From assembly GCA_017557605.1 (NCBI GenBank), contig JAFYYJ010000044.1, positions 19,655-83,654 on the forward strand: 64,000 bases of DNA, given 5' to 3'. Positions 27,859-60,283 of this stretch are shown in pieces; position 1 is the first letter of the stretch, and each line of letters begins with the position of its first letter. The DNA is from Salinivirgaceae bacterium. GTDB lineage: Bacteria; Bacteroidota; Bacteroidia; Bacteroidales; SZUA-534. Position numbers and translations under genes: made by a program. Below the pieces are notes generated by a model that was given only the letters and a program-made list of their open reading frames with translations, was not told the DNA's origin and did no database searches.

Positions 27859-27891
27859 CTTGCTTGCTGTTTTTGATTGGACACCGGATTG

Positions 27892-28862: not shown

Positions 28863-28915
28863 TTTCAATTAATTTTAAATAAGATTTAAACGTTGTTTGA
28901 TATCGAATATTGTTG

Positions 28916-30214: not shown

Positions 30215-30369
30215 TATCAATATTTTAAATAGCGAGCGTACAATGCGCGCCACAAATTGTGTGCTTCAAAAATAATGAAATTGACGGGCAATTTTTCAAC
30301 AGATTGTTACGATTTTGTACCCGCAGCCGTATCTTGGCGCATATCAGCGACATACAAATTTCGGCTATA

Positions 30370-32058: not shown

Positions 32059-32181
32059 TTTTCTGTTTTCAAAAAGCCGCCAAATATAACAACCCAAACC
32101 TAATTTGAAAATTTAAATTCAAACGAACACCGACTGAAATGCGCCGTTCCATTTTTCGGCTTTCAAAATCAACATAAATTC

Positions 32182-32189
32182 TATCTTTG
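32182..32189 (+). promoter_or_regulatory. Bacteroidota-type -7 promoter box (TAtcTTTG)
   Basis: Exact TAnnTTTG match, 17 nt upstream of the M23 gene ATG. Confidence 0.5.
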
Positions 32190-32206
32190 CACGTTTCAAG
32201 ATAATT

Positions 32207-33055
32207 ATGGGAAAAGCGAAAAAGGCGGCAAAGAAACCGAACGAGCGATACAGAGTAACCGTTCTCAACAATCGTACACTTGACGAGGTGTGGCACACTG
32301 TGACATCGAAGCGGACGGTGGTGGCTCTGTCGGTACTCATAATTGTGGTTGCCATAGCCGCAGGCTGCGCCATTGCGATGTTCACACCGCTGCGCCAACA
32401 GATTCCCGGCTACCCCAGCAATGCCGACCGCATGATGCTTATAGACAACATTCTGCGCATCGACTCAATAGAGAAAATACTGTTACAGAAAGACTTATAC
32501 ATCAACAATCTGAACGATATACTGTCGGGGAAGCCGACGCAGTCGCACACCGTTGAGAAAGGCTCGATTCACACCGACGATAACCTGCCTTCGATTAAAC
32601 GCGACTCATCGATTTACAGAAACACCGACAATCAGTTCAACATCAAACAGATAAACAGTTTGAACGAGCCCGTCGAAAGCACTGTCGAGATGTATTTCTA
32701 CAGCCCGGTGCGCGGCTCGATAACCAACCCCCACTCCCCCGAAACAGGGCATTACGGCGTTGATGTGGTGGCAAACACAAAAGACCCTATCCTCTCAATC
32801 CTCGACGGTACAGTGATTATGGCCGGATGGACGCTTGAGGCAGGCTACGTGATTATTGTGCAGCACCGCAACAACATTGTGTCGCAATACAAGCACAACT
32901 CGTTCCTGCTCAAAAAGATAGGCGACCACGTGAGGGCCGGCGAGCCGCTGGGCATCATCGGCAACACAGGCGAGTACACCACTGGACCGCACCTGCATTT
33001 TGAGTTGTGGCAGAACGGCATGCCGCTGAATCCGACTGACTACATAATCTTCTGA
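32207..33055 (+). CDS. M23 family metallopeptidase
   Basis: Motifs 'GHYGVDV' and 'GNTGEYTTGPHLHFEL' with an N-terminal TM. Confidence 0.85.
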   Translation: MGKAKKAAKKPNERYRVTVLNNRTLDEVWHTVTSKRTVVALSVLIIVVAIAAGCAIAMFTPLRQQIPGYPSNADRMMLIDNILRIDSIEKILLQKDLYINNLNDILSGKPTQSHTVEKGSIHTDDNLPSIKRDSSIYRNTDNQFNIKQINSLNEPVESTVEMYFYSPVRGSITNPHSPETGHYGVDVVANTKDPILSILDGTVIMAGWTLEAGYVIIVQHRNNIVSQYKHNSFLLKKIGDHVRAGEPLGIIGNTGEYTTGPHLHFELWQNGMPLNPTDYIIF

Positions 33056-38507: not shown

Positions 38508-39158
38508 ATGCCGCAGCGATTCGACCACAGCGTTGACCAATACATCGAGGAGCACACAACAGCCGCGAGCGACTTGCTCAACGAATTGGAGCGTCAGACC
38601 TACCTGAAAATCCTTCGTCCGCAGATGGTGGCTGGGCACCTTCAGGGTAAGGTTTTGGAGATGATGTGCCGGATGATACGCCCGCAGCGCGTGCTCGAGT
38701 TGGGCACCTTTACGGGATATTCGGCTCTGTGTATGGCCGCCGGAATGCCCGAAGGCTCTGTCTTACACACCATTGATGTGAACGATGAGCTGGAGGATTT
38801 CACACGCTCGTTTCTCGACCGCAGCCCTTACGCCAACCGCATTGTCTATCATTTGGGCGATGCGCGGCAGATTGTCCCCACTCTGGGCGGCAATTTCGAT
38901 TTGGTTTTTATCGATGCCGACAAACGCGAATATCCCGAATACTACAACCTGATAATCGGTGAAGTACGCACGGGCGGCTTCATTGTTGCCGACGATGTGC
39001 TGTGGTACGGCAAAATCAACGGCGACACGCCCCACAGCGACAACCACACCGCCGGTCTTCAGCAATTCAACGATATGGTCCACAACGACTCGCGCGTCGA
39101 AAACGTGCTGTTCCCAATCCGCGACGGATTGATGGTGATGCAGAAAATCAAGGATTGA
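38508..39158 (+). CDS. Class I SAM-dependent O-methyltransferase (caffeoyl-CoA OMT-like, family 3)
   Basis: Motifs 'VLELGTFTGYSAL' and 'FDLVFIDADKREY'. 216 aa. Confidence 0.85.
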   Translation: MPQRFDHSVDQYIEEHTTAASDLLNELERQTYLKILRPQMVAGHLQGKVLEMMCRMIRPQRVLELGTFTGYSALCMAAGMPEGSVLHTIDVNDELEDFTRSFLDRSPYANRIVYHLGDARQIVPTLGGNFDLVFIDADKREYPEYYNLIIGEVRTGGFIVADDVLWYGKINGDTPHSDNHTAGLQQFNDMVHNDSRVENVLFPIRDGLMVMQKIKD

Positions 39159-39554
39159 CTGATTGACTGATTGATTAATAGAATAACTGAAGGATTGAAG
39201 GCAGAAGTTACTAGTTACAAGTGACAAGGCATAAGGCAAAAGGCATAAGGGGGAATGATTAATGATTAGTGATTAATGATAGATGTAGGGACTCGCACTG
39301 CCACATCCGCATAAAGGCAGTAATACACTGCAAGTGTCTGAAGTCTGTTGTCCGTTGTCTGTAGTCCAATTAAATTCCACCCCCCGAAACCATTCACTCG
39401 TCGGGTTAAACGATGCGGTTCACCGATATAGGCTTTCAGAACACTCACAACCACAATACTTTTGCCACTGCAAACAAAAAGGTGCGCAACTGCAGAACAT
39501 TTTTTCGTTTGCGTTGTCAATAAACGTATTTTTAAACCGTAAAAAACTTGAATT

Positions 39555-41201: not shown

Positions 41202-41459
41202 ATGGGAAAGAGACAAAAACCAACGTTTCTCGAGTACCTAAACGCCGTGAAGAAGGCTGACAGGGAAAGAGAGATAGCGACGCACGGAAAACTGATTTCC
41301 ACAAGGCCGCTACGAATCGTGAAATCGAAAAAGGTTTACGACCGAAACCGCAAAAAGAGAGATTGTTCGAATTATGATGACAGTCTCTCTTTTTTTCTGC
41401 CAGTCTTCTTGTTAAATATTCAAATACCGATGCCACAAATAGAGAACAAGCAATGCTAA
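41202..41459 (+). CDS. Small basic ORF (85 codons) or non-coding transcript
   Basis: The sequence 'MGKRQKPTFLEYLNAVKKADREREIA...KVYDRNRKKRD' has a good promoter. However, the frame runs through a terminator hairpin and overlaps the 3' end of the opposite-strand gene. Confidence 0.3.
   Translation: MGKRQKPTFLEYLNAVKKADREREIATHGKLISTRPLRIVKSKKVYDRNRKKRDCSNYDDSLSFFLPVFLLNIQIPMPQIENKQC
41352..41396. terminator. Bidirectional rho-independent terminator
   Basis: A5-'agagaga' ... 'tctctct'-T6. The stem is flanked by an A-run and a T-run, so it can act on both strands. It lies directly downstream of the minus-strand paralogue array. Confidence 0.7.
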
Positions 41460-42080
41460 GAAAAAGACATGATATAGGAACGACAACATCCTTTTTTCGT
41501 CGGGAATATACCACGCGCCTAATCCGACAATCAGAAAAAAGCCGGCTGCACCAATAATGAACAAGTCGAGCAACGGATATTTGAGCCTGGTCATCCGGCA
41601 GACTTTCGGATTGCTTCGCTTACATAAAATCGTAACGCGCGAGCTCGACACATCCTTGGTCAGTCTCACACGGCTTATGTATTCGACATTGTTGAAGGTG
41701 TACTCCACCTTGGCCCATTCCTCGTAATAGGGCATCGAGCCGCCGACACTATACCTTGAGCCGAATATCGGGATTTGGCCTTTTACAACGTATGAATCGG
41801 TTATGGTTGCGCCAACCTTAGTGTAGAGGCAGGCATCGATGCGCGCCCACGCAAGTCCGGCGAAACATATCGCGAAGAATGCGACTACGGTTATTTTGAA
41901 TGATTTCCACCGTTTCGCGGCACTTTCGTCTTTCAACTCTTCAAGCTCGCGGTCGGCTTTCGCAAAGTCGGACATGATTTTTCCGTAATCGTACAAGTCG
42001 TCGTCATTGCGCCTCTTTTCGCGCCTCTTTTGGCGCAAGGCGGCCCTTTTCTCCTTGTCGGCTTTATTCTTCTTTGCCAT
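41412..42080 (-). CDS. DUF3592-like membrane protein, paralogue A (K/R-rich N-tail, extra C-terminal TM)
   Basis: 'MAKKNKADKEKRAALRQKRREKRR', then an acidic coil, a TM, a ~95-aa beta-rich segment ('WAKVEYTFNNVEYISRVRL...ILCKRSNP') and further TMs. Confidence 0.8.
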   Translation of the reverse strand: MAKKNKADKEKRAALRQKRREKRRNDDDLYDYGKIMSDFAKADRELEELKDESAAKRWKSFKITVVAFFAICFAGLAWARIDACLYTKVGATITDSYVVKGQIPIFGSRYSVGGSMPYYEEWAKVEYTFNNVEYISRVRLTKDVSSSRVTILCKRSNPKVCRMTRLKYPLLDLFIIGAAGFFLIVGLGAWYIPDEKRMLSFLYHVFFLALLVLYLWHRYLNI

Positions 42081-42104
42081 GATTCGTTTTATTTCAGGAA
42101 CAAA

Positions 42105-42641
42105 CTATACACATAATCCGATAACCAGAACTATGCCGAAAATAATCATAATGCCCGTATCGAGCATCGGGTATTTGAGTCTGGTCATCCGGCACTCATG
42201 TGGGTGATTTTTCTTGCAGTAAACCATAATGTGCGTGCCCTGCACATCCTTGGTCAGTCTCACACGGCTCTTGTATTCGATATCGTTGTAAGTGTACTCC
42301 ACCTTAGCCCATTCCTCGTAATAAGGCATCAAGCCGCCATGACTTGTCCGTGAGGCGAATATCGGGATTTGGCGTTTTACGGAGTATGAATTGGTTATGG
42401 TTGCGCCAACCTTTGTGTAGAGGCTGGCATCGATACGTGCCCACACCAGTCCGGCGAAACATAGCGCAAGAAATACAACCATAGTTATTATGTAGGATTT
42501 TTGCCGTCTTGCGGCACTTTCCTTTTTCATCTCTTCAATTTCGGGTCCGGCTACTTTAAAACAGTACCGGAGGTCGCGTCTGCGCCTCTTTTCGCGCAAA
42601 GCGGCCCTTTTCTCCTTATCGGCTTTGTTCTTTTTTGGCAT
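42105..42641 (-). CDS. DUF3592-like membrane protein, paralogue B
   Basis: 'MPKKNKADKEKRAALREKRRRR...'. The TM and beta core are near-identical to A ('WARIDASLYTKVGATITNSY', 'YYEEWAKVEYTYNDIEY'). The linker is shorter. Confidence 0.8.
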   Translation of the reverse strand: MPKKNKADKEKRAALREKRRRRDLRYCFKVAGPEIEEMKKESAARRQKSYIITMVVFLALCFAGLVWARIDASLYTKVGATITNSYSVKRQIPIFASRTSHGGLMPYYEEWAKVEYTYNDIEYKSRVRLTKDVQGTHIMVYCKKNHPHECRMTRLKYPMLDTGIMIIFGIVLVIGLCV

Positions 42642-42648
42642 GATTCAT

Positions 42649-43269
42649 TTACTTTTCCTTCGAAGGCGGACCTACACATAATCCGATAACCAGAACTACG
42701 CCGAAAATAATCATAATTCCCAGGTCGAGTTTCGGATATTTTAGTTTGGTGAGCCGGCACTCCTGCGGGTGATTCTTCTTGCAGTAAACCATAATGTGCT
42801 GGCTCTGCACATTCTTGTCGAGTTTCACACTGCCCTTGTATTCGATATCGTTGAAAGTGTACTCCACCGTAACCCAGGTTTCATAATAAGGGAACACACC
42901 GCCCTGCGTTGTGTAGGTGTCGAATATCGGTTGCTGGCGTTGTACGTTGCGATAACCGGTTATGGTTGCGCCAACCTCGGTATACCGGCTGGCATCGACG
43001 CGCGACCATACAAATTCGGCGAAACATAGCGCAAGAACCACAAGAATGGTTGTCTTAAAGGATTTCGCACTCCGTTGTGCGCTTTCCTTCTTCATCTCTT
43101 CAAACTCCTGGTCGGCTTCCTCAAAACTCTCCTGAATGTATTGATAATACACTTGTTGCTCGCGCATCTCCCCGCGCATCTTCTCGCGTCTCTTTTCGCT
43201 CATCACTTTGCGCATCTTATCGAGTCCGGCGGCTCTTCTCTTTTTGGCGGTTTTGCTTTTGTTTGGCAT
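42649..43269 (-). CDS. DUF3592-like membrane protein, paralogue C
   Basis: 'MPNKSKTAKKRRAAGLDK...'. It has the same TM, beta domain and TM layout ('WVTVEYTFNDIEYKGSVKL...VYCKKNHP'). Confidence 0.8.
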   Translation of the reverse strand: MPNKSKTAKKRRAAGLDKMRKVMSEKRREKMRGEMREQQVYYQYIQESFEEADQEFEEMKKESAQRSAKSFKTTILVVLALCFAEFVWSRVDASRYTEVGATITGYRNVQRQQPIFDTYTTQGGVFPYYETWVTVEYTFNDIEYKGSVKLDKNVQSQHIMVYCKKNHPQECRLTKLKYPKLDLGIMIIFGVVLVIGLCVGPPSKEK

Positions 43270-43295
43270 AGATATCGGGTGTTAGGTGTTGGGGG

Positions 43296-44666
43296 TTAGT
43301 TGATTGTGATAATTATCGCCACCACGCAAAGCACTATATAACATACAATTAATCCAATTGCAATGCAGGCTGCCACAAAGAGTTTCGGGTGGTGCGTCTT
43401 GAAGTTTTTGATTTTTGTGCGAAGGTTGCTATCGCCTTCAACATAGACAAATTCGGGGACGGGTTCGGCGGATTTATCGTTTCGATTGTCAATGGATTTG
43501 GCTTGCGTTTTCGTAATCATCCACTTTCGGTAGAGACCGAACACCAAAAGACCGCAGCCGACAACAAGCGCGGGAAGCCAGCGGAGAGTGTGCGAAAAGA
43601 GTCGGCTGACCGAATCGTCGTACCAGAAAATGGTTGTGTGGCCCGAACGGAGCACCTCGAAAACATCGAAATCGAGCCAGGCGTGAACCAGAAACGGCAC
43701 CAGTAGAACCAAGCCCGCAACTATGGCTATTGTGTGGAGCCGCGCCATAAACGTCGCTTTTTTCTTTGCAATGGCCCGAAGCGCCATCCACGCCTCAACC
43801 TTCCGACGGTGCTCCTCCGCTTCGGCCTGTTGGCGCTCCATTTCGGCCTCAATGGGCAGCCTCCGCTCCTTTTCCAAATGACTTTCAACGAATGGAATGG
43901 CTTGCGGAGTGGCGCCTTGCAAAGCGTTGGCAATCTGCACATTGCCCGTTTTTGATTTCTTAATGGATTGAGGTTCGAGGACTTTGTAAATTATTTTGAA
44001 ATCTTTCCGTTTCGACAATTTCAGAAGCCAAATGCCATAAATTGTGAAAGCACCGCCAACAATATCCATAATAATAAATGGCCGATAATACTTCAAGCAT
44101 ACTGTGCCAATAATGAGAAGTATACAGCCCACAATAATGAGAATTATGCATGTTGAAACCAACGTCCTGCAAGTTTTTCCATAAACGACGATTCTCTTTT
44201 CTTTAACATTCAAATCAATCCTGGCAAACCCACTCCAACTGAACGACGCCAACCTGTTTCGGTACATAAAGGTGCCGAAAAAGAAGAACAAGGCAGTGAA
44301 AATCATGCAGAAAAATGCTGCGGCTGGATAGTTGCGGAGCAAACCCATTGAGAGGAACCAGACTGTGAGTGCGCCCGAGAAAACGCCAATGACCAAAAAT
44401 ATGATTCCAACCATCCGAGTGCCGTTGAGCGCAAGCCTATCCAAGAGTTCGGGGTGCGCCGCAACGTTCAGGTTCAAAATACCAGCGGCGATAAACGCAA
44501 CCGCACCCAAGCCGAACATGGTCACAAACAGAATGTTGCCTGCAAGTTCACTAAACCCGCCAAGAACGAAAATAAACACTCCTATCAGGAACAAGAAGAC
44601 GCAGCCAAAGAAAATAAATGCTATGCCTTTGGTCCTGCGGTCGGTTATAGGTATTTGTTTTCGCAT
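43296..44666 (-). CDS. Polytopic membrane protein with central charged coiled-coil, unknown function
   Basis: 456 aa with about 9-10 hydrophobic helices and a central 'EKERRLPIEAEMERQQAEAEEHRRKVEAW' segment. No family was recognised. Confidence 0.75.
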   Translation of the reverse strand: MRKQIPITDRRTKGIAFIFFGCVFLFLIGVFIFVLGGFSELAGNILFVTMFGLGAVAFIAAGILNLNVAAHPELLDRLALNGTRMVGIIFLVIGVFSGALTVWFLSMGLLRNYPAAAFFCMIFTALFFFFGTFMYRNRLASFSWSGFARIDLNVKEKRIVVYGKTCRTLVSTCIILIIVGCILLIIGTVCLKYYRPFIIMDIVGGAFTIYGIWLLKLSKRKDFKIIYKVLEPQSIKKSKTGNVQIANALQGATPQAIPFVESHLEKERRLPIEAEMERQQAEAEEHRRKVEAWMALRAIAKKKATFMARLHTIAIVAGLVLLVPFLVHAWLDFDVFEVLRSGHTTIFWYDDSVSRLFSHTLRWLPALVVGCGLLVFGLYRKWMITKTQAKSIDNRNDKSAEPVPEFVYVEGDSNLRTKIKNFKTHHPKLFVAACIAIGLIVCYIVLCVVAIIITIN

Positions 44667-44747
44667 TTGCTGTTGTTTTTATCGTTGTTTTTTGCCTGTT
44701 CTGTTTTTATAAATCTCTTATTTTCAGCGTATAATCGAGCCGTCGGT

Positions 44748-45542
44748 TCAATCCATTCCCGCCATATACGATATGGTTGCATCGGTGTCATCGGTGTTTT
44801 TGGTTTCGACATCATCGCTGAACGTGAGAGCCGACACCACAAAAATTATGAACGCCGCGCATCCGAACAGAAATATTATCCAAATAAGATTCTTATTCTG
44901 ATAATGAAGAACCCAGTGGCGGTCATCTTCATCGCCAAATACAGAGGCGTATGTATCCTTGCTGACATACAGTTTCATTTTCCGCCCTATAGCGGGAGAA
45001 CCCGACAACTCGTAAGTTTCCGTCTTGCCGTCGATACTGTATTCTACCGTAAAATATGAGCTTTTGTTGTTCGAATTTCCGCGTTTGTGATTCGAACCAC
45101 TCTCTGTCCGTTTACTGATAACTGTGCCTTCAACCTCAATGCCCATGGCTTTCTTCTCGCGGTCGCTCAACACTATCACAACGCCTATGGTAATGAGTAC
45201 CAGACTGATACCCATACCAACCTTGAATATTGCCCAGTCGCGCTTCGGTTTTTCGGGCTGACTTTCGGGCTGCGGTTGCGGTTCGTTTGAGCGCTCATAC
45301 ACACTCCCGCGTTTGTAAGCCCGCCGCGCACGGATAATTATCGTCAGCGACGGAACTATGAACGCCAGCGGGAACGCAAGGAGCATTATTATGCCGCCAA
45401 TTGTCCACGCCCTATCCGCAATTGTTTGTAACTCAAACAAATGTTTGATTCCTGCATAAACGACATAACAAATTGGCGGAAGTGAGATTAACCCGATAAT
45501 CAGGAAAATCAATACCATGCCGTGTGTTCGCTGTGGGTTCAT
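44748..45542 (-). CDS. DUF3592-like membrane protein (divergent fourth member)
   Basis: 2 TMs, a P/Q/E linker, a TM, the segment 'VEGTVISKRTE...YFTVEYSIDGKTETYELSG...KMKLYVSKD' and a final TM. The beta-segment pattern is typical of DUF3592. Confidence 0.75.
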   Translation of the reverse strand: MNPQRTHGMVLIFLIIGLISLPPICYVVYAGIKHLFELQTIADRAWTIGGIIMLLAFPLAFIVPSLTIIIRARRAYKRGSVYERSNEPQPQPESQPEKPKRDWAIFKVGMGISLVLITIGVVIVLSDREKKAMGIEVEGTVISKRTESGSNHKRGNSNNKSSYFTVEYSIDGKTETYELSGSPAIGRKMKLYVSKDTYASVFGDEDDRHWVLHYQNKNLIWIIFLFGCAAFIIFVVSALTFSDDVETKNTDDTDATISYMAGMD

Positions 45543-45617
45543 AACTGACTGATTGAAGATTTCTCTATCTCTCTGATTCTCTAACTCTCTAATTCTCTAA
45601 CTCTCAATTCTTCCGCA

Positions 45618-46127
45618 TTAGTCTCTTTTCTTCATCCAGATTGTGCCAAGCACAAGGAACGGCGCGGCGAACAGGAGGCAGACAGCAAAACAGAGTATTG
45701 TTTCAACGTCGGCATCGGCAATGTGGTTGTCGAAAACCAAGGCTATGGGAATGGCCACCGCTATAAGCCCGATAATGAAGAAAACAAGGCCCTCCGCAAA
45801 TCGTGGGTGCTCCTGACTGAATTTCCGCGGCGGACGGAACGTGCCTGTCTTCTCTCTGATAGCGTTTTTCAGAAACGCAATGCCGCCCACAAGGAACGCA
45901 AGTGAGCACAAGCCCCAGAACGAGTACAGAAAAATGGTGACTCCTGGCGAGTACACACGTTCGTAGGGACCGCCGTTAATGGACATATTCAGATAGAACA
46001 TGTCGGGGCTGCCAATTTGGTTGTAAAGGACAATTGCCATAATCGTCAACGACGCCAACCCGAAAAACATAAAAAACGCCGCGATAGCCCATTTGTTCGT
46101 TATTGGTTTTGAAAATCCTACACGCAT
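45618..46127 (-). CDS. Four-TM membrane protein, paralogue 1
   Basis: 'MRVGFSKPITNKWAIAAFFMFFGLASLT...'. It aligns along its full length with the ORF at 46309..46827. Confidence 0.75.
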   Translation of the reverse strand: MRVGFSKPITNKWAIAAFFMFFGLASLTIMAIVLYNQIGSPDMFYLNMSINGGPYERVYSPGVTIFLYSFWGLCSLAFLVGGIAFLKNAIREKTGTFRPPRKFSQEHPRFAEGLVFFIIGLIAVAIPIALVFDNHIADADVETILCFAVCLLFAAPFLVLGTIWMKKRD

Positions 46128-46308
46128 AAATTATTGATTGACTTATTGATTAATTGATTAATTGATTGACTGATTAAAGGATTGAAGGATTGACTGACTG
46201 ATTGATTGATTGACTGATTAATAGATTAACAGATTGATTGAAGGATTGAAGGATTGATTGAATAACACTCTAATTCTCTACTTTTCTATCTCTCTAATTC
46301 TCTAACTC
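46128..46308. repeat. Word-repeat spacer (GATTGA/AAGGATTGA words, then CTCTAA/TTCTCT words)
   Basis: Plus strand 46128-46263 is almost C-free G/A/T words. 46264-46308 has no G. This was read directly. Confidence 0.9.
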
Positions 46309-46827
46309 TCAATTCTCCCTCCATTCCTCTTTTTTCTTCATCCAGATTGTTCCAAGCACAAGGAACGGCGCGGCGAACAGGAGGCAAAGAGAGTATAACA
46401 CCAAATTCACGCCCGTCGCATGGTTGCCGTCGAAAACCAAGGCTATGGGAACGGCCACCGATATAAGCCCGATAATAAAGAAGACAAGGCCCGTAGCAAA
46501 ATATGGGCGCTCCTGACTGAATTTTCGCGGTGGTCGGACCGTACCTTTCTTCTCTCTGATTGCTTGTTTCAGATACGCAATGCCGCCCGCAACGAAGGCA
46601 AGCGAGCCCAAGCCCCAGAACGAGAACCAAAAAATGGTGGTTCCTGGCGAGTACACACGTTCGTAGGGGCCGCCGTTAGTGGACACATTCTGATAGAACA
46701 TGTCGGGGTCGCCAATGTTGTTGCAAATGACGATTATCATACCCGTCAACGACGCCAACCCGAATAACATAAAAACCGCCGCTTTAGCCCATTTATTCGT
46801 TATTGATTTATAAATTCCTACACGCAT
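46309..46827 (-). CDS. Four-TM membrane protein, paralogue 2
   Basis: 'MRVGIYKSITNKWAKAAVFMLFGLASLT...'. It is a tandem duplicate of 45618..46127. Confidence 0.75.
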   Translation of the reverse strand: MRVGIYKSITNKWAKAAVFMLFGLASLTGMIIVICNNIGDPDMFYQNVSTNGGPYERVYSPGTTIFWFSFWGLGSLAFVAGGIAYLKQAIREKKGTVRPPRKFSQERPYFATGLVFFIIGLISVAVPIALVFDGNHATGVNLVLYSLCLLFAAPFLVLGTIWMKKKEEWREN

Positions 46828-46928
46828 AAATTATTGATTGATTTATTGATTAATAGATTGATTGACTGATAGACTAATTGAAGGATTGAGGGATTGAAGG
46901 ATTGAATTGCATACAACTGAATATTTGC

Positions 46929-47145
46929 GTATGAAGTAATTGTCTGAAAGACAACATTTTCATAACCGGGGGTTAAGCGAAGCGCAACCCGCGGATAACG
47001 ACACATATCTGACACCAGTCTGGAAGACTGAACCTTTTTAATGTTCACTCTTTCAGAGTGTTGCTCTGCGTGGTACTTCGACCGGAGGCTGCGCTTCGCT
47101 TGCGTCCGGATATGCAGATTCAGTCCTTCGGACTGCTCTTTTAAG
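46929..47145 (+). ncRNA. Candidate structured small RNA, antisense in orientation to the surrounding locus
   Basis: A -7-like box 'aataTTTG' (46920-46927) is followed by six hairpins: 46930-46964, 46967-46993, 47016-47030, 47046-47060, 47082-47109 and 47121-47135. The last is C(UUCG)G followed by 'ctctttt'. A 12-nt long-range complement links 46975-46986 and 47090-47101. Confidence 0.35.
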
Positions 47146-47239
47146 TTTGTTGTTATACTATATCCATACATTTTTAATTCTAACATTCAGTTATTCACAC
47201 ATTCAATCCTTCTCTCCTTCACGCATTCAGTTATTGTCT

Positions 47240-48010
47240 TTACCAACTTCCGCTGGCGCCGCCGCCGCCGAAGTGTCCGCCGCCAAATCCACCAAAACTA
47301 CTGTGACTAAATCCGCCACCCGAACTCCTACCGCCTGAACTCCAGTCGCTTGAATGCCAAGTGCCCGAACGGTAAACCGACGAACCTGGCGTAGTGTAAT
47401 GGTTCTTGCTGAACTTTAACGCCAGCAAAACAGTAACTACAATAAAGACAAGGAAAAAGACAATGGCGGCAATGTCGCCCGCAGTGTGCTCAATGTGCTG
47501 GTCGGCAGGTTGGAACTCGCCTTTAGTCATCGCAATGCAGGCATCCACAGCCTCGTCAATTCCCTCGTAAATCTCATTCTGGCGGAAATGCGGAATCATC
47601 TTGTAATTGATTATCCAACTGCACCTTGCGTCGGGAATGAGCGACTCAATGCCATAGCCCGTCTGAATGGTTACGCGCCCCGACTCGTAGTCGGTTTTCG
47701 GTTTATAGACAATGACAATGCCGTTGTCGAAGCCGTTCTGACCAACGCCCCAGCCCTCGCCCAACCGCTGGCCGAAGTCGGCAACATCGTAGCCGTGCAG
47801 GTTGGTTGTGGTGTAAATCAGAATCTGCGTGGAGGTCTCACGGTTGAAGGCTTCAAGTTTTTCGGTCAAGGCCGCGTGCTGCTCGTCGGTGAAGGCGTTG
47901 GCGCTGTCAACCACAAGCGCCTGCTCCGCTGGACGGCTGAAAATTTCGTCATCGGCAAACGAGGTAACCGTTGCCGCTAAAAATGTGATTATTAATAATA
48001 TCCGTTTCAT
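47240..48010 (-). CDS. TPM domain-containing protein (YgcG-like), paralogue 1
   Basis: Signal peptide, TPM core ('VVDSANAFTDEQHAAL...ILIYTT...GWGVGQNGFDNGIVIV'), a TM and a Gly-rich tail 'GGFGGGHFGGGGASGSW'. Confidence 0.85.
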   Translation of the reverse strand: MKRILLIITFLAATVTSFADDEIFSRPAEQALVVDSANAFTDEQHAALTEKLEAFNRETSTQILIYTTTNLHGYDVADFGQRLGEGWGVGQNGFDNGIVIVYKPKTDYESGRVTIQTGYGIESLIPDARCSWIINYKMIPHFRQNEIYEGIDEAVDACIAMTKGEFQPADQHIEHTAGDIAAIVFFLVFIVVTVLLALKFSKNHYTTPGSSVYRSGTWHSSDWSSGGRSSGGGFSHSSFGGFGGGHFGGGGASGSW

Positions 48011-48064
48011 TTTTCAATCTTTCAATCCTTCAGTTATTCAATCCTTCAATTAATCAATCCTTGT

Positions 48065-48811
48065 TTACCAACTGCCTCGTGCTCCGCCGCCACCAAAATG
48101 ACCGCCGCCGTAACTGTGGCTGCTGCTCGAACTGCGAGAACTTCTGTGGCTGCTGCCACCCGACGAACCTCTGCCGCTGCTCACAGTAACACCACTACTG
48201 GCGCCAATCCATATCAAAGCCATTAAGGACATAAAAAGAATCGAATATATAAACCGAAAAAGGGGACTCTCGAACCATCTTCTTTCTTTTTTAGCCATAT
48301 ATTCTTTCGCCGCGTTCTCGTCGCTTGCGAACTGCATGCAGAGGTCAACCGCCCTATCGATTCCCGAATAATAATGTCCTTTTTTGAACTCTGGAATCAT
48401 CTCAAAGTCAATAATTTGTTTGCAGACTGCATCAGGCATGAACGGTTCAATGCCGTAGCCCACCTGAATGGTCACCTCGCCTTTTACGAAACTCGTTTTC
48501 GGCTTACATACAATGACAATGCCATTGTCGGCACCCTCCTGCCCAACGCCCCAGCCCTCGCCTAACCTCTGGGCAAAATCAACAATGTCGTAACCATACA
48601 AAGAATAGGTGGTGTAAATCTGTATCTGCACCGTTGTGGCCCGTTCAAACGAGTCCAACTTGGCTGTCAGAGCCGCAAACTGTTCTGTGGTAAACACATT
48701 AGCACTGTCAACAACAAGATGCACCTCCGCTGGACGGCTGAAAATATCGTCATCGGCAAAAGTGGCAAGGGTTGCTGATATAAGGGTGATTATGAATAGA
48801 ATGCGGCGCAT
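48065..48811 (-). CDS. TPM domain-containing protein (YgcG-like), paralogue 2
   Basis: Same architecture as paralogue 1 ('VVDSANVFTTEQFAAL...GWGVGQEGADNGIVIV...GGGHFGGGGARGSW'). Confidence 0.85.
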   Translation of the reverse strand: MRRILFIITLISATLATFADDDIFSRPAEVHLVVDSANVFTTEQFAALTAKLDSFERATTVQIQIYTTYSLYGYDIVDFAQRLGEGWGVGQEGADNGIVIVCKPKTSFVKGEVTIQVGYGIEPFMPDAVCKQIIDFEMIPEFKKGHYYSGIDRAVDLCMQFASDENAAKEYMAKKERRWFESPLFRFIYSILFMSLMALIWIGASSGVTVSSGRGSSGGSSHRSSRSSSSSHSYGGGHFGGGGARGSW

Positions 48812-48837
48812 TGTAGTTTCTTAATTATTATCCTCAC

Positions 48838-51087
48838 TTACTTTTTGTTTGTCGCTGTTCTAACTATCCGAGCCCCAATGCCTGGGTCCGATTCAAAGCG
48901 CCGTCCATCGGGCCAATTATATTGACGGGCAGTGACGGTACAACGCCCTGCGGCTTCCTCATCTGTATATTCTGAGCCTTCAAACCGATAGCCACCGCCC
49001 CTGATAATACGGCCAAGTTTGTTTTCGGGCGCACGGCCATACCAGTAAGCCCAGTCCCAGCACCACTCGTAAAAATTGCCTGACATATCGTAAATTCCCA
49101 GTTCGTTAGGTTTTTTGGTTTTCACCTCGCGAGGTTCGTGATAATGAACTTGGGCGCCGCTGGACATAACAAAATCTTTTATATAAGCGGTTCCGCTGTA
49201 CCAAGCCACATCGGCAATGTTGTTACTGCCGCTGTATTTATAGCCCTTACTAAATTTTCCACCTCGCGCCGCATACTCCCATTCAGCCTCGGTGGGCATA
49301 CGATAGCCGTTGGCCGAGAAATCGCACTGAATCACATCCCAGTTGGTTGGCGTTTTGAGATATTCCAGTACCCGCCTGGGTTCCCAAGTCTTTACATCGG
49401 TACTTCCTTTGTATGAGTAGCAAGGTGTCAGCCCTCTGGCTTCGCTCAATAGGTTGCAGTACAAAACAACCTCGTACCAATTGACCCATACCGGTTTCGT
49501 ATCGCCGTCGAAAGGGCCGGGATTAACACGCATTATTTCCTTGAATTCGGCTTGAGTTAATTCATGGTCACACATATAGAAACTGCCCACCGTTACGCTG
49601 TGCACAGGTCTCTCTTCTTCATCTCCCATAGCGTTTCCCATTTTGAAGGTTCCGCCTTCAACGAACACAAACTTGTCGTCGGTGCGCTGAACACTCTTTT
49701 TGGGTGCCGGCGAACTGGCATAACTGACACCCGGAACATTTTTCACCACACGGAAACCAAAGCTATTAGTAGCCTTGTATGGTCTTATAACTGAATTTCT
49801 GGCCGAAATGCGTGAACGAAAAGAATCAGATTCGTATGTACCTCCCCTATAAGCTCTTACAATGTAAATGCCCATAAAGTAAAAACCGTCAGAAAAACCT
49901 TTTGGGTTGGTTTCGCTTCCGTCAGCATAAGTGGCGAACCAGTCCCAGCACCATTCGGTCACATTGCCGCTCATATCGTACAATCCGAGTTCGTTGGCTT
50001 TTTTCTGCATTACGGCGTGCGGTTTGCTTCCGCTGTTGCCTTTGTGCCAGGCCACCTCGTCAATATTGTTGCTTCCGCTGTAAGTGTAGCCTTTGCTCTT
50101 TTTCCCACCACGGGCAGCCCACTCCCATTCGGCCTCTGTGGGCAGCCTGTAGCCGTTGGCAGTCCAGTCACAGGTAAGCTTCCAATGGGGATAAGGGTCG
50201 TCACTGTAGAACTTGGTATAGTCGTCACCCCATTTCTGGACATCGGTTTCTCCCTTGAACGCGTAGCACGGAGTCAGACCTTCGCTCATACTGAGTTTGT
50301 TGCAGTAATAGACGGCATCGTACCAGCTCACCTTTTCCATCGGGAAGTTTGTGCCTTTATGTCCGCTCACGTTAGACTTTCTTGTAACCGATGTGTATTC
50401 CTCCTGCGTCACCTCGTGGTCGCACATATAGAAGCTGCTCACCGTGACGCTGTGCGCGGGTTTCTCAAACTCGCCACCGGAATTGTCTCCCATAACAAAT
50501 GTTCCTCCCTCGACAAGGATAAAACCCTCACTTGCCTTCTTTTTCGTCCCCTGCGTACTCTGTCCGCCGCCCTGTGTGCTCTGTCCGCCACCCTGCGCAT
50601 TTTTGTTGTTTGTCAATGCAAGCCGAGCATCGCTGCTTAGTTTTGATTTTGGGTCGATATTGATTGATTTAAGGTTTTTACAATCAGCAAAAACCTCTTT
50701 GTCAACCACGGTTACGCTTGCCGGAATGGTTATTTCGCGAATTGCCGTATTCTTGAAAAGTCTGTAATTCAGATTTGTAAGCCCATTATGCAGTGTCACT
50801 TTCGATAGTGATGTGCAGTTTTGGAATGCAGCCTTGCCTATTGTCTTTACAGAAGCCGGAATATCGATTTCGGTCAGATTCGAACACCCATGAAAGGCAA
50901 GGTCGCCAATTTTAGTTACCGATGACGGAATGACAACTTTTTTTATGCTGGTGTTGCCATAATACGCCATTGACTTTATTTCTGCGGTACCACCGGCAAT
51001 GGTCAGCACTCCATTAACAATTTTTTGCGCCGACAACGAACCTGTCGCCAACAGAAAGGATGAGATTAAAACAAATATTTTTTTCAT
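48838..51087 (-). CDS. Secreted BspA-type LRR protein fused to two FGE-sulfatase (SUMF1/formylglycine-generating-enzyme-like) domains
   Basis: Signal peptide 'MKKIFVLISSFLLATGSLSAQ', LRR units 'IPxSVxxIGxxAFxxC' and a 'GGGQSTQGGGQSTQG' linker. Two copies of 'FYMCDHE(V/L)TQ', 'ANGYR(L/M)PTEAEWE(W/Y)AARGG' and 'YDMSGN..EWCWDW' follow. Confidence 0.8.
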   Translation of the reverse strand: MKKIFVLISSFLLATGSLSAQKIVNGVLTIAGGTAEIKSMAYYGNTSIKKVVIPSSVTKIGDLAFHGCSNLTEIDIPASVKTIGKAAFQNCTSLSKVTLHNGLTNLNYRLFKNTAIREITIPASVTVVDKEVFADCKNLKSINIDPKSKLSSDARLALTNNKNAQGGGQSTQGGGQSTQGTKKKASEGFILVEGGTFVMGDNSGGEFEKPAHSVTVSSFYMCDHEVTQEEYTSVTRKSNVSGHKGTNFPMEKVSWYDAVYYCNKLSMSEGLTPCYAFKGETDVQKWGDDYTKFYSDDPYPHWKLTCDWTANGYRLPTEAEWEWAARGGKKSKGYTYSGSNNIDEVAWHKGNSGSKPHAVMQKKANELGLYDMSGNVTEWCWDWFATYADGSETNPKGFSDGFYFMGIYIVRAYRGGTYESDSFRSRISARNSVIRPYKATNSFGFRVVKNVPGVSYASSPAPKKSVQRTDDKFVFVEGGTFKMGNAMGDEEERPVHSVTVGSFYMCDHELTQAEFKEIMRVNPGPFDGDTKPVWVNWYEVVLYCNLLSEARGLTPCYSYKGSTDVKTWEPRRVLEYLKTPTNWDVIQCDFSANGYRMPTEAEWEYAARGGKFSKGYKYSGSNNIADVAWYSGTAYIKDFVMSSGAQVHYHEPREVKTKKPNELGIYDMSGNFYEWCWDWAYWYGRAPENKLGRIIRGGGYRFEGSEYTDEEAAGRCTVTARQYNWPDGRRFESDPGIGARIVRTATNKK

Positions 51088-52766: not shown

Positions 52767-54041
52767 ATGATTCTGCATATTGATTGCAATACATTCTACG
52801 CCTCGTGTGAGGTTGCTTTGCACCCCGACTTGCAAGGCAAGCCTGTTGTTGTCGCAAACTGCAATGAGGCTGGTGGCGGCATCATTCTGGCACTTACCAA
52901 AGAGGCTAAAGCCCTCGGACTAAAGCGCGGCGACCCAGTGTTTAAGGTTACCAAATTGTTGAATGACAACAATGTGACTGTATTTCCCGCCAACTTGCCA
53001 AAGTACGTTGATATTAGCCGCCGTCTGATGCGGATTGTCCGTGAGCAAAATATTGTGGTGAACTTTCAGCAGTATTCAGTTGATGAATTTTTCGGCGAGT
53101 TGCCAACAGACGATAAAGACCAACTGCGTGAGGCGGCACTCAAAATCAAACACCACATAGAGCAAAGCACAGACATACCCGTCAGCTGTGGAGTTTCGCT
53201 AACGTACACACTCGGTAAGGTTGCCACGTGGTATGCCAAGCACTATCCTGGCTATGAAGGTGTTTGCGTTTTGCCTAAAGACAAAATCGAGGTTGCTTTA
53301 AATAATTTCCCCATTGCTGAAGTGTGGGGTATAGGCCGTCGCACAGCGCCGAAACTCAAAGCCAACGGCATTGATAATGCCTTGCAGTTTTACAATACCG
53401 ATGAGAGACACATTCGCCGCTGGCTCAATATCAATGGTGTGTGCACATGGAAGGAGTTGCATGGTATACCTTCAATCAGCATCGATAATCCTGAACGTCA
53501 GCAATCTATTTGTCACTCGCGCACATTCGCCTATATGACAAGCGACCTCAACACGCTACGCACTTACATTTCCGATTATGCGGTGGCTGTAGCTCGCAAA
53601 CTTCGCGCGCAACATTCAGTTTGTCTGACGGTTAGCGCGTTCTTGTCAACCAATCCGTTCCGTGAGGATTTAGACCAGTACAGCAATATGGCAACCACAA
53701 AATTAAATGTTGCCACTGCCGACAGTCGGGATATCTGCAAAGCCGCCATAAGCGCATTGGAAGAAATATACAAGCCTGGATTGCAATACAAGAAGGCCGG
53801 AGTCATTCTCTCAAACATTACAAGCGATGAGAACATACAGTTTGATTTGTTCCAAGACCCCGAGCAAACGTCAAAGTCCAGCAAGTTAATGGCCGCACTT
53901 GATTCGCTAACAGACAAGTATGGTATGGATTCAGTCAAACTAGCCGCACAAGGATTTGAAAAGCCTAATTTGAACCTCTCCAACTTTCAATCATCGCAGA
54001 ATCAAAGTACCAACATAAACGATATAATTAAAGCAAAATAA
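52767..54041 (+). CDS. umuC: Y-family translesion DNA polymerase (UmuC-like)
   Basis: N-terminus 'ILHIDCNTFYASCEV' and 'YSVDEFF'. At 424 aa it matches the ImpB/MucB/SamB family layout. Confidence 0.85.
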   Translation: MILHIDCNTFYASCEVALHPDLQGKPVVVANCNEAGGGIILALTKEAKALGLKRGDPVFKVTKLLNDNNVTVFPANLPKYVDISRRLMRIVREQNIVVNFQQYSVDEFFGELPTDDKDQLREAALKIKHHIEQSTDIPVSCGVSLTYTLGKVATWYAKHYPGYEGVCVLPKDKIEVALNNFPIAEVWGIGRRTAPKLKANGIDNALQFYNTDERHIRRWLNINGVCTWKELHGIPSISIDNPERQQSICHSRTFAYMTSDLNTLRTYISDYAVAVARKLRAQHSVCLTVSAFLSTNPFREDLDQYSNMATTKLNVATADSRDICKAAISALEEIYKPGLQYKKAGVILSNITSDENIQFDLFQDPEQTSKSSKLMAALDSLTDKYGMDSVKLAAQGFEKPNLNLSNFQSSQNQSTNINDIIKAK

Positions 54042-54260: not shown

Positions 54261-54336
<76 letters not shown>

Positions 54337-55001: not shown

Positions 55002-55092
55002 AGATAATGATTAATGTAGGAATGATTAATGTTTAATGAGTAAAGTATAATGGTTTCTTCACTCATTCATCACGATAGCTATCAGGTTTCAA

Positions 55093-57997: not shown

Positions 57998-60283
57998 TTA
58001 TTTCTTCACAATCTTATGTGTCGCTCCGTCTGAAGTATTGAGCAAATAAACACCTTCGGGATATTCCGACAAATCAAGCAGATACGATGCCGCATTTTCC
58101 TCTTTACGCAACAGTTTACCATTGATGTCGGTTAGTACATACGAAAATCCTTCCTCAGCATCAACGGTCACAAACGAAACGGTTGGATTAGGATAGATTT
58201 TCACGCCAATTGCATTCACTTCTGAAACAGCTGTTTGCAAATAAATTGTATCCGTTTTGGTGATGTAGATTGTGTCGTGAATAAATTTAACATCTTTATA
58301 GTAAATAACTGTGTCATGGACCAAAACCTCTGTTTTTACCGTATCGTGAACAAATTTCACATCCTTAAACAAATAGACAGTGTCTGGCTCGGTAACGAAG
58401 ACAGTGTCGTGTTCTATTGTTTTGATGGTATCGCGAACTATAACATCAATTTTTACAGTATCGCGAACAACAACTGGCACTTCAATCTTAATTGTATCCA
58501 CAACTGTTATGGGTTCAAAAACCGCTGTAAATGAAGTGTCTTTTGTTACTGTAATTGTACGAGGATTCTCTGTGACGACATCGTTCCAACAGTAAAACTG
58601 ATAGCCAATAGCTGGCGTTGCAATTAGTGTTGTCTGTTTGCCGTGAGTGTAAGTTCCGCCGCCAACAACTAAACCATTCTCGGCCATTGTTGTAACCGTA
58701 TAAACATTGATTGCAAATTCGGCTGTGTAGCTGCCGCTTTCTGTAACTGCGATTGTCCGTGTTGGTTCTGTATTGCCATCGCTCCATTTCACAAAATGAT
58801 AGCCTTCGTTGGACACTGCTGTTAGCGTTGTAGACGGACTTGCTGTATTTGACAAATACCACAACGAACCATTAGCTGCTTTAAACTCGTAATTACCTGT
58901 AGTTTTCACTGTGCCAAATTCAGCATTATTGGTTGAAACATCCACAGTTTTGCAATTCCATTCAACATTTTTAACATAACTCTCTAAATCACCATATCCT
59001 TCTGGTTTGCTTTGGGCTTGACAATATAGTGTAGCGTTGTTGCAACCAGATAATGCAGCCCAACCAATTTCAACTACTGTACTGGGAATAGTTAATGTTT
59101 TCAGATTGGAACAGTTGCAAAAAGCCATACTACGTATAAATTTACAACTACTGTTTATCTCGCACGACGCGATTTCATTATTTATAGCCTTTACCAATAA
59201 TATATATGAGTTGCTGCTGTTTCCTAAATAGTAGGCGTTGATGTACTCGGTGAATTGCATTTTGTTACACCCGGCAAAAACAGCAGTGCCGATGCTCAAT
59301 ATTGAGTTCGGAATCTCGATTGATGTTAAATTGCTGCAATCATTAAACGCATAACTGCCTATTTTGGTGAGCGATTCGGGAAGGGTAACTGATGTCAGAT
59401 TGTTGCAATTTCGGAATGCATCGTCGCTAATTTCAGTAACTCCATTTGTAACAACAACCGACGTTAGGCTTGTGCAGTTCGAAAAAGCCTGATTGCCAAT
59501 ACGGGTTACACCGTTCGGAATTGTTACTGAAGCACTATTGCCGATGTATGCCGTTAGTTGTGTTTTCTCGGCATCAGTGTACATAAAATCACCATCAATT
59601 GTTCCATTGACATTTAGTGCTCCCCACGGGCCATCTTCTGCTGTTCCATAGTAAACTATATTTTTCACCCCCGAAAAAGCAGCCCAACCAATTCCAACTA
59701 CACTGTTAGGAATGGTTAGTGTTTTCAGATTGAAACAGTTGCAGAAAGCCATACTGCATATAATTTTACAGTTGCTGTTTATCTCGCACGACGCGATTTC
59801 ATTATTTTTAGCCTTTACCAATAACAGGTAAGGATTGTCATTGTTTCCAAAATAGTAGGCGTTGTCGTATAGGGTGAATTGTAAATTGTTACACCCACTG
59901 AAAACACCAGTGCCGATGCTCAATATTGAGTTTGGAATATCAATTGATGTTAAATTGCTGCAATCATTAAACGCACAACTGCCTATTTTGGTGAGCGATT
60001 CGGGAAGGGTAATTGAACTTAAATTTTTGCAACAGCAAAAAGCGTCATCGCCAATGCGGGTTACTAAATAGGTTACACCGTTGTTGGTTACTACTTCAGG
60101 AATTGTAACGGTTGTCAATTTGGAATAATTATCTGTATTCCAACTATATTCAAATGTAACCTCTACAGTATAAGGTTCTGTGTTACTTGTGATATTATAA
60201 TACAAATCACCACTTTGAAAATCGTATGCAAATGCTTGAGTCATAGGCATTGTTGCAAATAGAAATGTAAAAATCCTTTTCAT
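57998..60283 (-). CDS. BspA-type LRR protein with T9SS C-terminal sorting domain
   Basis: Signal peptide, LRR units 'IPNS(I/V)xxIGxxxFxxC', a repeat region 'VRDTVK/HDTV', and a C-terminus 'KIYPNPTVSFVTV...LLNTSDGATHKIVKK'. Confidence 0.8.
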   Translation of the reverse strand: MKRIFTFLFATMPMTQAFAYDFQSGDLYYNITSNTEPYTVEVTFEYSWNTDNYSKLTTVTIPEVVTNNGVTYLVTRIGDDAFCCCKNLSSITLPESLTKIGSCAFNDCSNLTSIDIPNSILSIGTGVFSGCNNLQFTLYDNAYYFGNNDNPYLLLVKAKNNEIASCEINSNCKIICSMAFCNCFNLKTLTIPNSVVGIGWAAFSGVKNIVYYGTAEDGPWGALNVNGTIDGDFMYTDAEKTQLTAYIGNSASVTIPNGVTRIGNQAFSNCTSLTSVVVTNGVTEISDDAFRNCNNLTSVTLPESLTKIGSYAFNDCSNLTSIEIPNSILSIGTAVFAGCNKMQFTEYINAYYLGNSSNSYILLVKAINNEIASCEINSSCKFIRSMAFCNCSNLKTLTIPSTVVEIGWAALSGCNNATLYCQAQSKPEGYGDLESYVKNVEWNCKTVDVSTNNAEFGTVKTTGNYEFKAANGSLWYLSNTASPSTTLTAVSNEGYHFVKWSDGNTEPTRTIAVTESGSYTAEFAINVYTVTTMAENGLVVGGGTYTHGKQTTLIATPAIGYQFYCWNDVVTENPRTITVTKDTSFTAVFEPITVVDTIKIEVPVVVRDTVKIDVIVRDTIKTIEHDTVFVTEPDTVYLFKDVKFVHDTVKTEVLVHDTVIYYKDVKFIHDTIYITKTDTIYLQTAVSEVNAIGVKIYPNPTVSFVTVDAEEGFSYVLTDINGKLLRKEENAASYLLDLSEYPEGVYLLNTSDGATHKIVKK

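Follow-up and report, generated by a model that had tools for sequence, protein, structure and literature searches.

We analysed a 64,000-nucleotide window (positions 19,655 to 83,654 of contig JAFYYJ010000044.1) from the Salinivirgaceae bacterium assembly GCA_017557605.1. Ten genes on its minus strand, numbered g1 to g10 from 51087 down to 41412, encode products that are all exported or membrane-bound, and they make up a conserved and probably co-transcribed envelope module restricted to a small clade of uncultured ruminant Bacteroidales. The families encoded by these genes recur together at about ten separate loci, where they are arranged in one of two orders and set in one of two chromosomal neighbourhoods, and in some loci two of the families are fused in a single protein. 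We consider it likely that the ten genes act as one functional unit; our confidence in any specific activity of the cluster is much lower. The cluster is best filed as a clade-specific variant of the envelope modules that contain a pair of TPM proteins.

The open reading frame (ORF) listing matched exactly the coordinates given by a first-pass annotation of the same DNA, and the single-strand layout, the gaps, and the export and transmembrane (TM) features by which it had called this an envelope locus were all reproduced:

48838-51087, minus strand: g1, 749 aa, secreted; signal peptide, BspA-type leucine-rich repeat (LRR_5) module, GGGQSTQ linker and two domains with the formylglycine-generating enzyme (FGE) fold
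48065-48811, minus strand: g2 (TPMa); signal peptide, then a TPM domain in the periplasm, a single TM helix and a tail rich in Ser and Gly that ends in GSW
47240-48010, minus strand: g3 (TPMb); second TPM protein, with the layout of g2
46309-46827, minus strand: g4 (4TMa), 172 aa; four TM helices, clade-restricted family
45618-46127, minus strand: g5 (4TMb), 169 aa; paralogue of g4
44748-45542, minus strand: g6, 264 aa; four TM helices
43296-44666, minus strand: g7, 456 aa; polytopic, about nine TM helices
42649-43269, minus strand: g8; K/R-rich cytoplasmic tail, acidic helix, TM helix, OB-like (oligonucleotide/oligosaccharide-binding) beta domain with a conserved Cys pair, TM helix
42105-42641, minus strand: g9; g10/g8 chimera, two TM helices
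41412-42080, minus strand: g10; paralogue in the g8 family with an additional C-terminal TM helix

The gaps between the genes measure, from g1 to g10, 26, 54, 412, 181, 75, 81, 26, 7 and 24 nt. The start of g1 at ATG 51087 yields a classical signal peptide (MKKIFVLISSFLLATGSLSAQ); the longest ORF reaches GTG 51108, and the public gene calls also give a protein of 749 aa. All-versus-all BLASTP confirmed the paralogue sets of three, two and two genes recognised in the first pass, with amino acid identities of 45-61% among g8, g9 and g10, 72% for g4/g5 and 53% for g2/g3. A hydropathy scan counts a single TM helix, following the TPM domain, in g2 and g3, four in g4, g5 and g6, about nine in g7, two in g8 and g9 and three in g10. 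The K/R-rich tails ascribed to g8-10 are indeed there (19-21 K/R in each N-terminal tail), and so is the charged cytoplasmic coiled coil of g7, whose charged loop spans 97 aa in the same scan.

The case for a unit begins with the distribution of the families. A scan of one genome per GTDB species (185,579 genomes) with an alignment of the 4TM family recovered five loci, all in metagenome-assembled genomes named 'Salinivirgaceae bacterium' from ruminants (buffalo, yak and sheep), and a JGI metagenome scan with this alignment added one more. Homologue clusters in an index of 5.8 billion proteins number 5 for g8, 26 for g4 and 25 for g6, and none of the g6 clusters carries a Pfam domain. Related loci, designated here by L numbers, were mapped against the window proteins and the public gene calls. 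They are of two types:

Type A loci: the window, L001, L004, L016, L017, L018, L023 and L025; order [LRR_5-X]n, TPMa, TPMb, 4TMa, 4TMb, g6, g7 and, where the contig extends there, one to three g8-like genes; flanked by GH43 on one side and a LiaF-like/LytTR pair on the other
Type B loci: L010, L011 and L013; order [LRR_5-X]n, TPMa, TPMb, g7-like, x246, (x150 lipoprotein), 4TM, g6-like, 4TM; flanked by hisS

The LRR_5 gene or genes always lie 9-26 nt upstream of TPMa. Between the two types, synonymous divergence (dS) is 0.7-2.2 for most genes. This is time enough for an unlinked neighbourhood to decay, so the families have been kept together through relocation, reordering and divergence close to saturation. 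Synteny in related genomes was the check that the first-pass annotation had proposed for its grouping of the genes, and co-localisation is what we found in both contexts. The annotation had also pointed to a LiaF-like/LytTR regulator pair facing the array. The pair is real and convergent with the cluster (LiaF-TM E=4.6e-7, LytTR E=1.4e-24), and it is present at type A loci only. It is not a conserved partner, as type B loci adjoin hisS instead.

The TPM and g8-like families are joined in a protein of 409-413 aa in three loci (L013 3775-5007, L018 6090-7319 and L026 348-1589). This TPM::g8-like fusion stands in an extra upstream module, after the gene for a TPM protein and before the genes for a free g8-like protein and an 82-aa TM protein, whose tail is rich in Gly and ends in W, as TPM tails do. 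The topology predicted for the fusion is coherent: a periplasmic TPM domain, a TM helix, a cytoplasmic K/R-acidic segment, a second TM helix, a periplasmic beta domain and a third TM helix. No other single observation speaks as strongly as the fusion for a functional link between the TPM proteins and g8-10.

Other components share modules as well. Residues 45-138 of g7 are homologous to g4 (BLASTP, E=4e-5), which makes the N-terminal module of g7 a homologue of the 4TM family. The remainder of g7 includes an E/R/K-rich coiled coil on the cytoplasmic side, a conserved 'IFWYDDS' loop in the periplasm and one TM helix at the C-terminus. The C-terminal TM tail is common to g7 and x246, the TM-beta-TM protein of type B loci, and the component families therefore share modules. 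We found no significant Pfam or NCBIfam family for g4, g5 and g7-g10, and profiles of the g7, 4TM and g6 families gave nothing below E=0.29 against PDB sequences. A 169-aa neighbour in L027 was tried as a further member of the 4TM family and excluded at 20% identity.

The TPM pair is the part of the cluster with the clearest relatives. TPM, also known as TLP18.3/Psb32/MOLO-1, occurs in LemA-TPM-TPM operons, which are widespread. Both g2 (117.3 bits, E=5.7e-34) and g3 (118.9 bits, E=1.7e-34) match the TPM family (PF04536) well above its cut-off of 22.1 bits and also match the TPM structures 7tbr, 2kw7 and 5anp in the PDB. Their layout is of the YgcG type, with a signal peptide, the TPM domain, one TM helix and a tail ending in GGGG(A)xGSW. 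The first-pass description of the two proteins as TPM/YgcG-like is thus supported by both score and layout. As in YgcG/TPM-pair modules, two TPM genes stand in tandem, each encoding a signal peptide, a TPM domain, a TM helix and a Gly-rich tail that ends in W; unlike in those modules, in some loci TPM is fused to a TM-beta-TM protein. The difference from LemA-TPM-TPM operons lies in the surroundings: LRR_5 upstream and four clade-restricted membrane families downstream, with no match to LemA among the products of this locus or of related loci. TPM domains are viewed as adapter or assembly subunits of membrane complexes, examples being photosystem II repair factors, the mycobacterial complex III-complex IV (CIII-CIV) subunit AscF/AscG and the PspA-associated YdjH (PMC11237479; PMC13456599).

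TPMa is 84-93% identical across all related loci, type B included, and TPMb has a separate orthologue in every related locus, with 75-97% identity over the full length. Since each has its own orthologues in both locus types, the TPM duplication must be old. We also observed an anomalously low dS for TPMa, 0.10-0.22 in comparison with each of the related loci; with L011 (5455-6201), a locus of type B, it is 0.12, while neighbouring genes show 0.7-2.2. This suggests either recent gene exchange between lineages or constraint at the nucleotide level.

Four of the membrane proteins, g6 and g8-10, had been labelled DUF3592-like, and the label fails the hidden Markov model (HMM) test for all four. 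The gathering threshold of DUF3592 (PF12158) is 25.3 bits. Pfam finds no DUF3592 in g8, g9 or g10, while g6 reaches 14.2 bits (E=0.072) for DUF3592 and E=0.0014 for DUF2500, both under the cut-offs. Family-wide, DUF3592 is matched by one of 15 members of the g6 family (E=0.072) and by two of 18 in the g8-10 family (best E=0.038). When the g8-10 profile was run exhaustively against 1.84 billion representative proteins, it recovered only 15 relatives and did not reach the large DUF3592 family. Many of the most distant g8-like proteins, indeed most, are on very short contigs, so that little of their context can be read.

A probable resemblance at the level of fold is seen for g8-10 only. The AlphaFold model of g9 (pLDDT, the predicted local distance difference test, 80.5) has a long N-terminal helix that continues as a TM helix, then an OB-like beta domain (residues 75-143) and a second TM helix at the C-terminus. 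Compared by Foldseek with predicted viral structures (BFVD), the model best matches membrane proteins of giant viruses, and 7 of the 36 top matches are annotated as DUF3592 (E 3.5e-5 to 4e-3, TM-score 0.3-0.47). Matches in the PDB are weak, led by the beta4 auxiliary subunit of the BK channel (TM helix, extracellular domain, TM helix) and followed by OB folds. DUF3592 proteins and g8-10 appear to share an architecture in which two TM helices enclose a beta domain of about 90 aa; they differ in the lack of a significant HMM match and in two features of g8-10, a long N-terminal tail rich in K/R and a conserved pair of Cys residues. Judged by the model, 'DUF3592-like' is a fair description of the architecture and fold of g8-10, not a family assignment. 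A mycobacterial DUF3592 protein has been predicted to be a cofactor or accessory subunit of the MptB membrane complex (bioRxiv 10.64898/2026.07.15.738315).

The protein encoded by g6 stands apart. A low-confidence model (pLDDT 51) places two TM helices first, followed by a linker rich in Pro and Glu, a third TM helix, a small beta domain, the fourth TM helix and an acidic tail; the orthologues of g6 in type B loci are 61-65% identical. We dropped g6 as a fourth paralogue of g8-10 after profile-profile comparison of the two families with hhalign gave a probability of 4%. With this value and the E-value of 0.072 given above, the first-pass view of g6 as a divergent fourth DUF3592-like gene is not supported.

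At the head of the cluster, the LRR_5 and FGE-sulfatase assignments made for g1 in the first pass both exceed the Pfam gathering thresholds. LRR_5 (PF13306) scores 105.7 bits against a cut-off of 27.7 (E=2e-30), with matches to LRR proteins in the PDB (4fs7, E=1e-45; 4gt6, E=5e-37), and FGE-sulfatase (PF03781) scores 270.7 bits against 23.3 (E=1.9e-80) over two domains. The orthologue in L001 is 91-92% identical. The C-terminus of g1 has no match to a type IX secretion system (T9SS) sorting domain (TIGR04183/PF18962; Por_Secre_tail), and the protein is therefore predicted to stay periplasmic. In this it differs from the BspA-type LRR_5 surface proteins that are T9SS cargo in Bacteroidales, as it also does in being joined to FGE-fold domains. 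It resembles them in its N-terminal LRR_5 module, and head genes of relatives end in tails like the T9SS C-terminal domain (CTD), scoring 15-20 bits against a 23-bit cut-off. Head genes vary across loci: some encode two or three FGE domains, some a C10 peptidase, and others LRR alone followed by a CTD-like tail. In L017 the head gene (5648-8260) encodes a signal peptide and three FGE-fold domains without an LRR module, and is preceded by a separate LRR gene with a CTD-like tail. Because the two parts occur there as separate genes, g1 looks like a fusion of the 5' part of an LRR gene with an FGE-repeat gene. Two more BspA-type LRR_5 genes lie elsewhere in the window (10505-12763, plus strand, and 57998-60283, minus strand), in patches of low GC content (0.35-0.40 against about 0.48). 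The second of these encodes a clear T9SS CTD (41.8 bits) and an InlB B-repeat-like domain.

Most of the duplications that the first pass had read as recent predate the splits between species. TPMa and TPMb are separate in both locus types. Within type A, g4 and g5 each have their own orthologues at 83-97% identity, and g8 and g10 each have orthologues in L001, L004 and L016 (92-98% identical for g10). The youth of the duplications holds for g9 alone. In sliding windows it matches g10 at 81-90% identity over its 5' and central stretch and g8 at 82-87% over its 3' stretch. It is a chimera of the 5' part of g10 and the 3' part of g8, just what one unequal crossover would yield. This third g8-like copy is found in this strain's contigs only; related loci that reach this end carry one or two, giving a range of 1-3 across loci.

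The dS between the window and L016 varies from 0.025 to 0.61 within this one pair of loci. The N-terminal part of g7 (about 330 aa) is of two very different kinds: the window and L004 share an allele (95% identical to each other) that is 44-45% identical to all others, and in L016, L018 and L023 this part of g7 matches type B alleles at 81-96% identity. In its C-terminal third g7 tracks locus type, with the window copy 80-89% identical to type A alleles. We read this heterogeneity of dS as the signature of a recombination mosaic. The ratio of nonsynonymous to synonymous divergence (dN/dS) is 0.1-0.5 for nearly all gene pairs and 0.44-0.57 for g7, and it approaches unity (about 1.07) for g4 against L017 and L018 only. 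Such low ratios argue that the divergence reflects old alleles and recombination and not positive selection. The diversifying selection offered in the first pass as one account of the duplications is thus not supported. On the whole the first-pass description is accurate in most respects, and it overstates its claims on evolution and on DUF3592. The 3', promoter-distal half of the cluster (g6-g10) would be plastic through homologous recombination, not through positive selection.

The co-travelling families, the TPM::g8-like fusion and the modules that g7 shares with the 4TM family and with x246 lead us to propose, tentatively and with somewhat less than even confidence, that the cluster encodes a clade-specific inner-membrane complex with TPM proteins as its periplasmic adapters. 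TPMa and TPMb, anchored in the inner membrane, would serve as periplasmic adapter or assembly subunits. The polytopic 4TMa, 4TMb and g7, together with the TM-beta-TM proteins g6 and g8-10, would form a hetero-oligomeric complex in the inner membrane, with the charged tails and the coiled coil of these subunits pointing into the cytoplasm. The complex would cooperate with the LRR_5 protein or proteins encoded directly upstream, which in this strain would be a periplasmic binder of LRR and lectin fold and in relatives LRR proteins with probable T9SS sorting domains.

Several observations weigh against a single unit of this kind. In L001 both g6 and g7 are absent, and the g8-like family is missing from the type B core, so the parts are not all obligatory. 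The narrow taxonomic range weakens the synteny evidence. The Bacteroidetes -7 box TAnnTTTG is found neither upstream of g1 nor in any spacer, a sigma-70 scan did no better than shuffled sequences (20 sites against 16 expected), and the longer internal spacers (75-412 nt) could hold internal promoters. The head gene is so variable that it could be cargo or a mere neighbour, and for four of the seven families no relative with a known function could be detected.

Two other accounts of the locus draw on some of these observations, and we regard each as unlikely. The first places the locus at a conflict interface, where a variable secreted LRR-X effector or adhesin would be accompanied by small membrane proteins for immunity, exclusion or receptor masking under selection by phages or competitors. 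The variable domain content of the head gene, the 1-3 g8-like copies, the presence or absence of g6 and g7, the two deeply divergent classes of g7 alleles in otherwise similar loci and the dN/dS of g4 against L017 and L018 would all fit, and DUF3592 proteins have been found beside LXG toxins (PMC12482557). Against this account, PADLOC-DB 2.0 returned only two chance-level matches for all ten products (E=0.006 and 0.001), PHROG matches are confined to the domains of g1, and the locus contains no toxin, nuclease or secretion-system domain and, as already noted in the first pass, no mobility genes. The dN/dS ratios are low nearly throughout, g7 included, TPMa is strongly conserved, and the variable part of g7 is mostly TM and cytoplasmic, not surface-exposed. 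The surface, phage or host interface that the first-pass annotation had suggested thus finds no defence family and, in most dN/dS values, no signal of positive selection. The cluster looks clade-specific and shuffled by recombination rather than defence- or toxin-like.

The second account, also doubtful, denies a functional unit altogether: the genes would be unrelated membrane genes left adjacent in a young, narrow clade, and only the TPM pair would be a real module. The families are indeed limited to about five genomes at species level and a few metagenome contigs, L001 does without g6 and g7, the spacers inside the cluster are long, and the g3/g4 gap tolerates an insertion specific to this strain. 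Mere adjacency fits poorly with families that stay together after a move to another chromosomal site and internal reordering, with linkage that persists despite near-saturated synonymous divergence, and with the TPM::g8-like fusion and the modules common to component proteins.

The remaining two accounts concern g1 and are far less probable. The nearest solved structure of both FGE domains is TvpA (2y3c, E=1e-35 and 4e-27, with true FGEs at about 1e-14), a variable protein of Treponema denticola that is diversified by a diversity-generating retroelement (DGR). After this match we considered g1 as a DGR target around which the locus would be built as a hypervariable ligand-binder, and rejected it as very improbable. 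No template repeat of any g1 segment occurs elsewhere in the 64-kb window. No reverse transcriptase was detected by a crude YxDD scan of all long ORFs together with Pfam labels on about two-thirds of the window (ORFs at ~14,100-33,055 unprofiled). The strain differences are not like those of a DGR variable region: compared with the L001 orthologue, g1 differs most in the GGGQSTQ linker and not in the C-termini of the FGE domains, and the last 378 aa of g1 are 100% identical in L016. With no DGR found, g1 is not variable in the sense of TvpA.

It is hardly credible that g1 is a working formylglycine-generating enzyme or related oxidase maturing an envelope enzyme, as the strong Pfam FGE-sulfatase match and weaker matches to EgtB, PvdO and SenA might suggest, given that the NCBIfam scores (GldK and GldJ included) are far below the cut-offs, that no sulfatase gene is present in the locus, and that the catalytic cysteines are gone. 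The catalytic cysteines of human FGE are Cys336 and Cys341. In domain 2 of g1, aligned to the Streptomyces FGE (6muj/2q17), the catalytic Cys positions hold F and A, and domain 1, read by eye, has no Cys in the equivalent segment. In fold and in the loss of these cysteines g1 resembles TvpA-type binding proteins, which are C-type-lectin-like, and the structural proteins PorK/GldK/GldJ, and it also matches the GldK and GldJ models; it differs from the latter lipoproteins in having no lipobox, in its sub-cut-off scores and in its extra N-terminal LRR_5 module. By these residues g1 is a non-catalytic FGE fold of the ligand-binder type, not an enzyme, in keeping with the first-pass description of its FGE and LRR modules as binding scaffolds.

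Three non-coding features lie within or next to the cluster:

46905-47170, no strand assigned: hairpin-rich insertion of about 265 nt in the g3/g4 spacer, strain-specific
46128-46308, no strand assigned: word-repeat spacer with an 8-nt period, between g4 and g5
41352-41396, no strand assigned: A-run/hairpin/T-run at the convergent junction with the LytTR gene

The 412-nt g3/g4 gap compares with spacers of 120-190 nt in other strains. The insertion of about 265 nt that accounts for the difference (~46905-47170) is absent at the same site in L001, L016, L017 and L018 and has no other copy in the window or the fetched loci; L017 has a different small hairpin insertion at this site. It folds strongly on both strands (minimum free energy -95.5 and -91.5 kcal/mol; z -5.75 and -5.93 against shuffled sequence). 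Two terminator-like sites, each a hairpin followed by a T-run, are found on the plus strand only, which agrees with the oppositely oriented hairpin-rich element noted earlier in this gap; the insertion should not terminate transcription of the cluster. The public gene calls place a 122-aa ORF at 46818-47186 in the region of the insertion, probably spuriously. Rfam, with gathering and E-value thresholds, gave no match in the 412-nt gap or the spacers, and recovered only a tRNA at 54261-54334. Possible identities for the insertion are a mobile palindromic element of small size and a gene for an antisense small RNA, and it is probably not part of the system.

The 181-nt gap between g4 and g5 (46128-46308) does consist of word repeats, as first described. 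Read on the coding strand, spacers of this kind carry 8-nt periodic words of the GAGAATTA type after the stop codon and then words of the AATCAATC type up to the next ATG, which here is that of g5; similar spacers lie at 45543-45617, 46828-46905 and 48011-48064. The feature is window-wide, not specific to the locus. Periodic words of 6-8 nt in either orientation (for example GATTGACT, AACGAT and TTCTCTAA) are present in many intergenic spacers of the window:

Word arrays at lower window coordinates than the cluster: 8793-8869, 13845-13881, 15409-15454, 18081-18122, 25014-25117 and 39153-39280
Word arrays from the cluster onwards: 45561-45611, 46129-46317, 46831-46905, 48006-48062 and 55005-55043

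Word-repeat spacers are also present in related loci. The arrays appear to be a genome-wide habit of the organism and its relatives, and they may act as unstructured leaders.

The A-run/hairpin/T-run at 41352-41396, proposed in the first pass as a bidirectional terminator closing the array, is present and invariant in L001, L004 and L016. It folds at -21 kcal/mol (z=-2.4) and was not flagged in a scan for consensus terminators because its loop is long. It is a plausible bidirectional terminator for both convergent units. A small ORF on the plus strand (41202-41459), between the LytTR gene and the 3' end of g10, runs through this hairpin and overlaps g10. Its first ~54 codons (MGKRQKPTFLEYLNAVKKADREREIATHGK...VYDRNRKKRD) are nearly invariant in DNA, where the flanks of the strains differ by 7%; a 1-nt indel in L004 alters its tail, and Pfam finds no domain in it. 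Either a genuine small basic protein or a conserved RNA element could account for it.

Beyond GH43 the window carries a Y-family polymerase gene (IMS; 52767-54041, plus strand), and L001 (767-3306) and L002 have instead an ATPase_2/AAA gene and two small ORFs. This difference marks the region as a second variable spot flanking the cluster. At the other end of the window, a gene for a gingipain-like Peptidase_C25 protein of 1616 aa that also contains CARDB and, at its C-terminus, an FlgD_ig-type domain (3856-8706, minus strand) adjoins one for a 1218-aa HAMP/HisKA/HATPase sensor kinase (197-3853, plus strand).

In the literature available to us on the TPM domain, YgcG, LemA and DUF3592 we found no description of such a cluster. 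The immediate impact of its discovery is limited to the annotation of rumen Bacteroidales and to hypotheses on TPM proteins: the host is uncultured, the species are few, and no new biochemical principle is indicated. It is a distinctly improbable extension of our proposal that the cluster encodes an undescribed multi-subunit inner-membrane apparatus of rumen Bacteroidales, assembled from TPM proteins, TM-OB-TM subunits, 4TM proteins and g7, which would serve the upstream LRR_5 surface or periplasmic proteins in cargo handling, quality control or trans-envelope signalling, with g7 alleles and g8-like copy number setting partner specificity. If true, it would be the first defined role in bacteria for TPM and DUF3592-like proteins beyond respiration and photosynthesis. 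Few bacterial envelope proteins without an assigned mechanism are as widespread as YgcG-type TPM proteins and DUF3592-like proteins, and the cluster offers a natural fusion of TPM to a TM-beta-TM protein, fixed co-inherited partners and variants that lack parts, and thereby a testable model of what TPM pairs dock onto.

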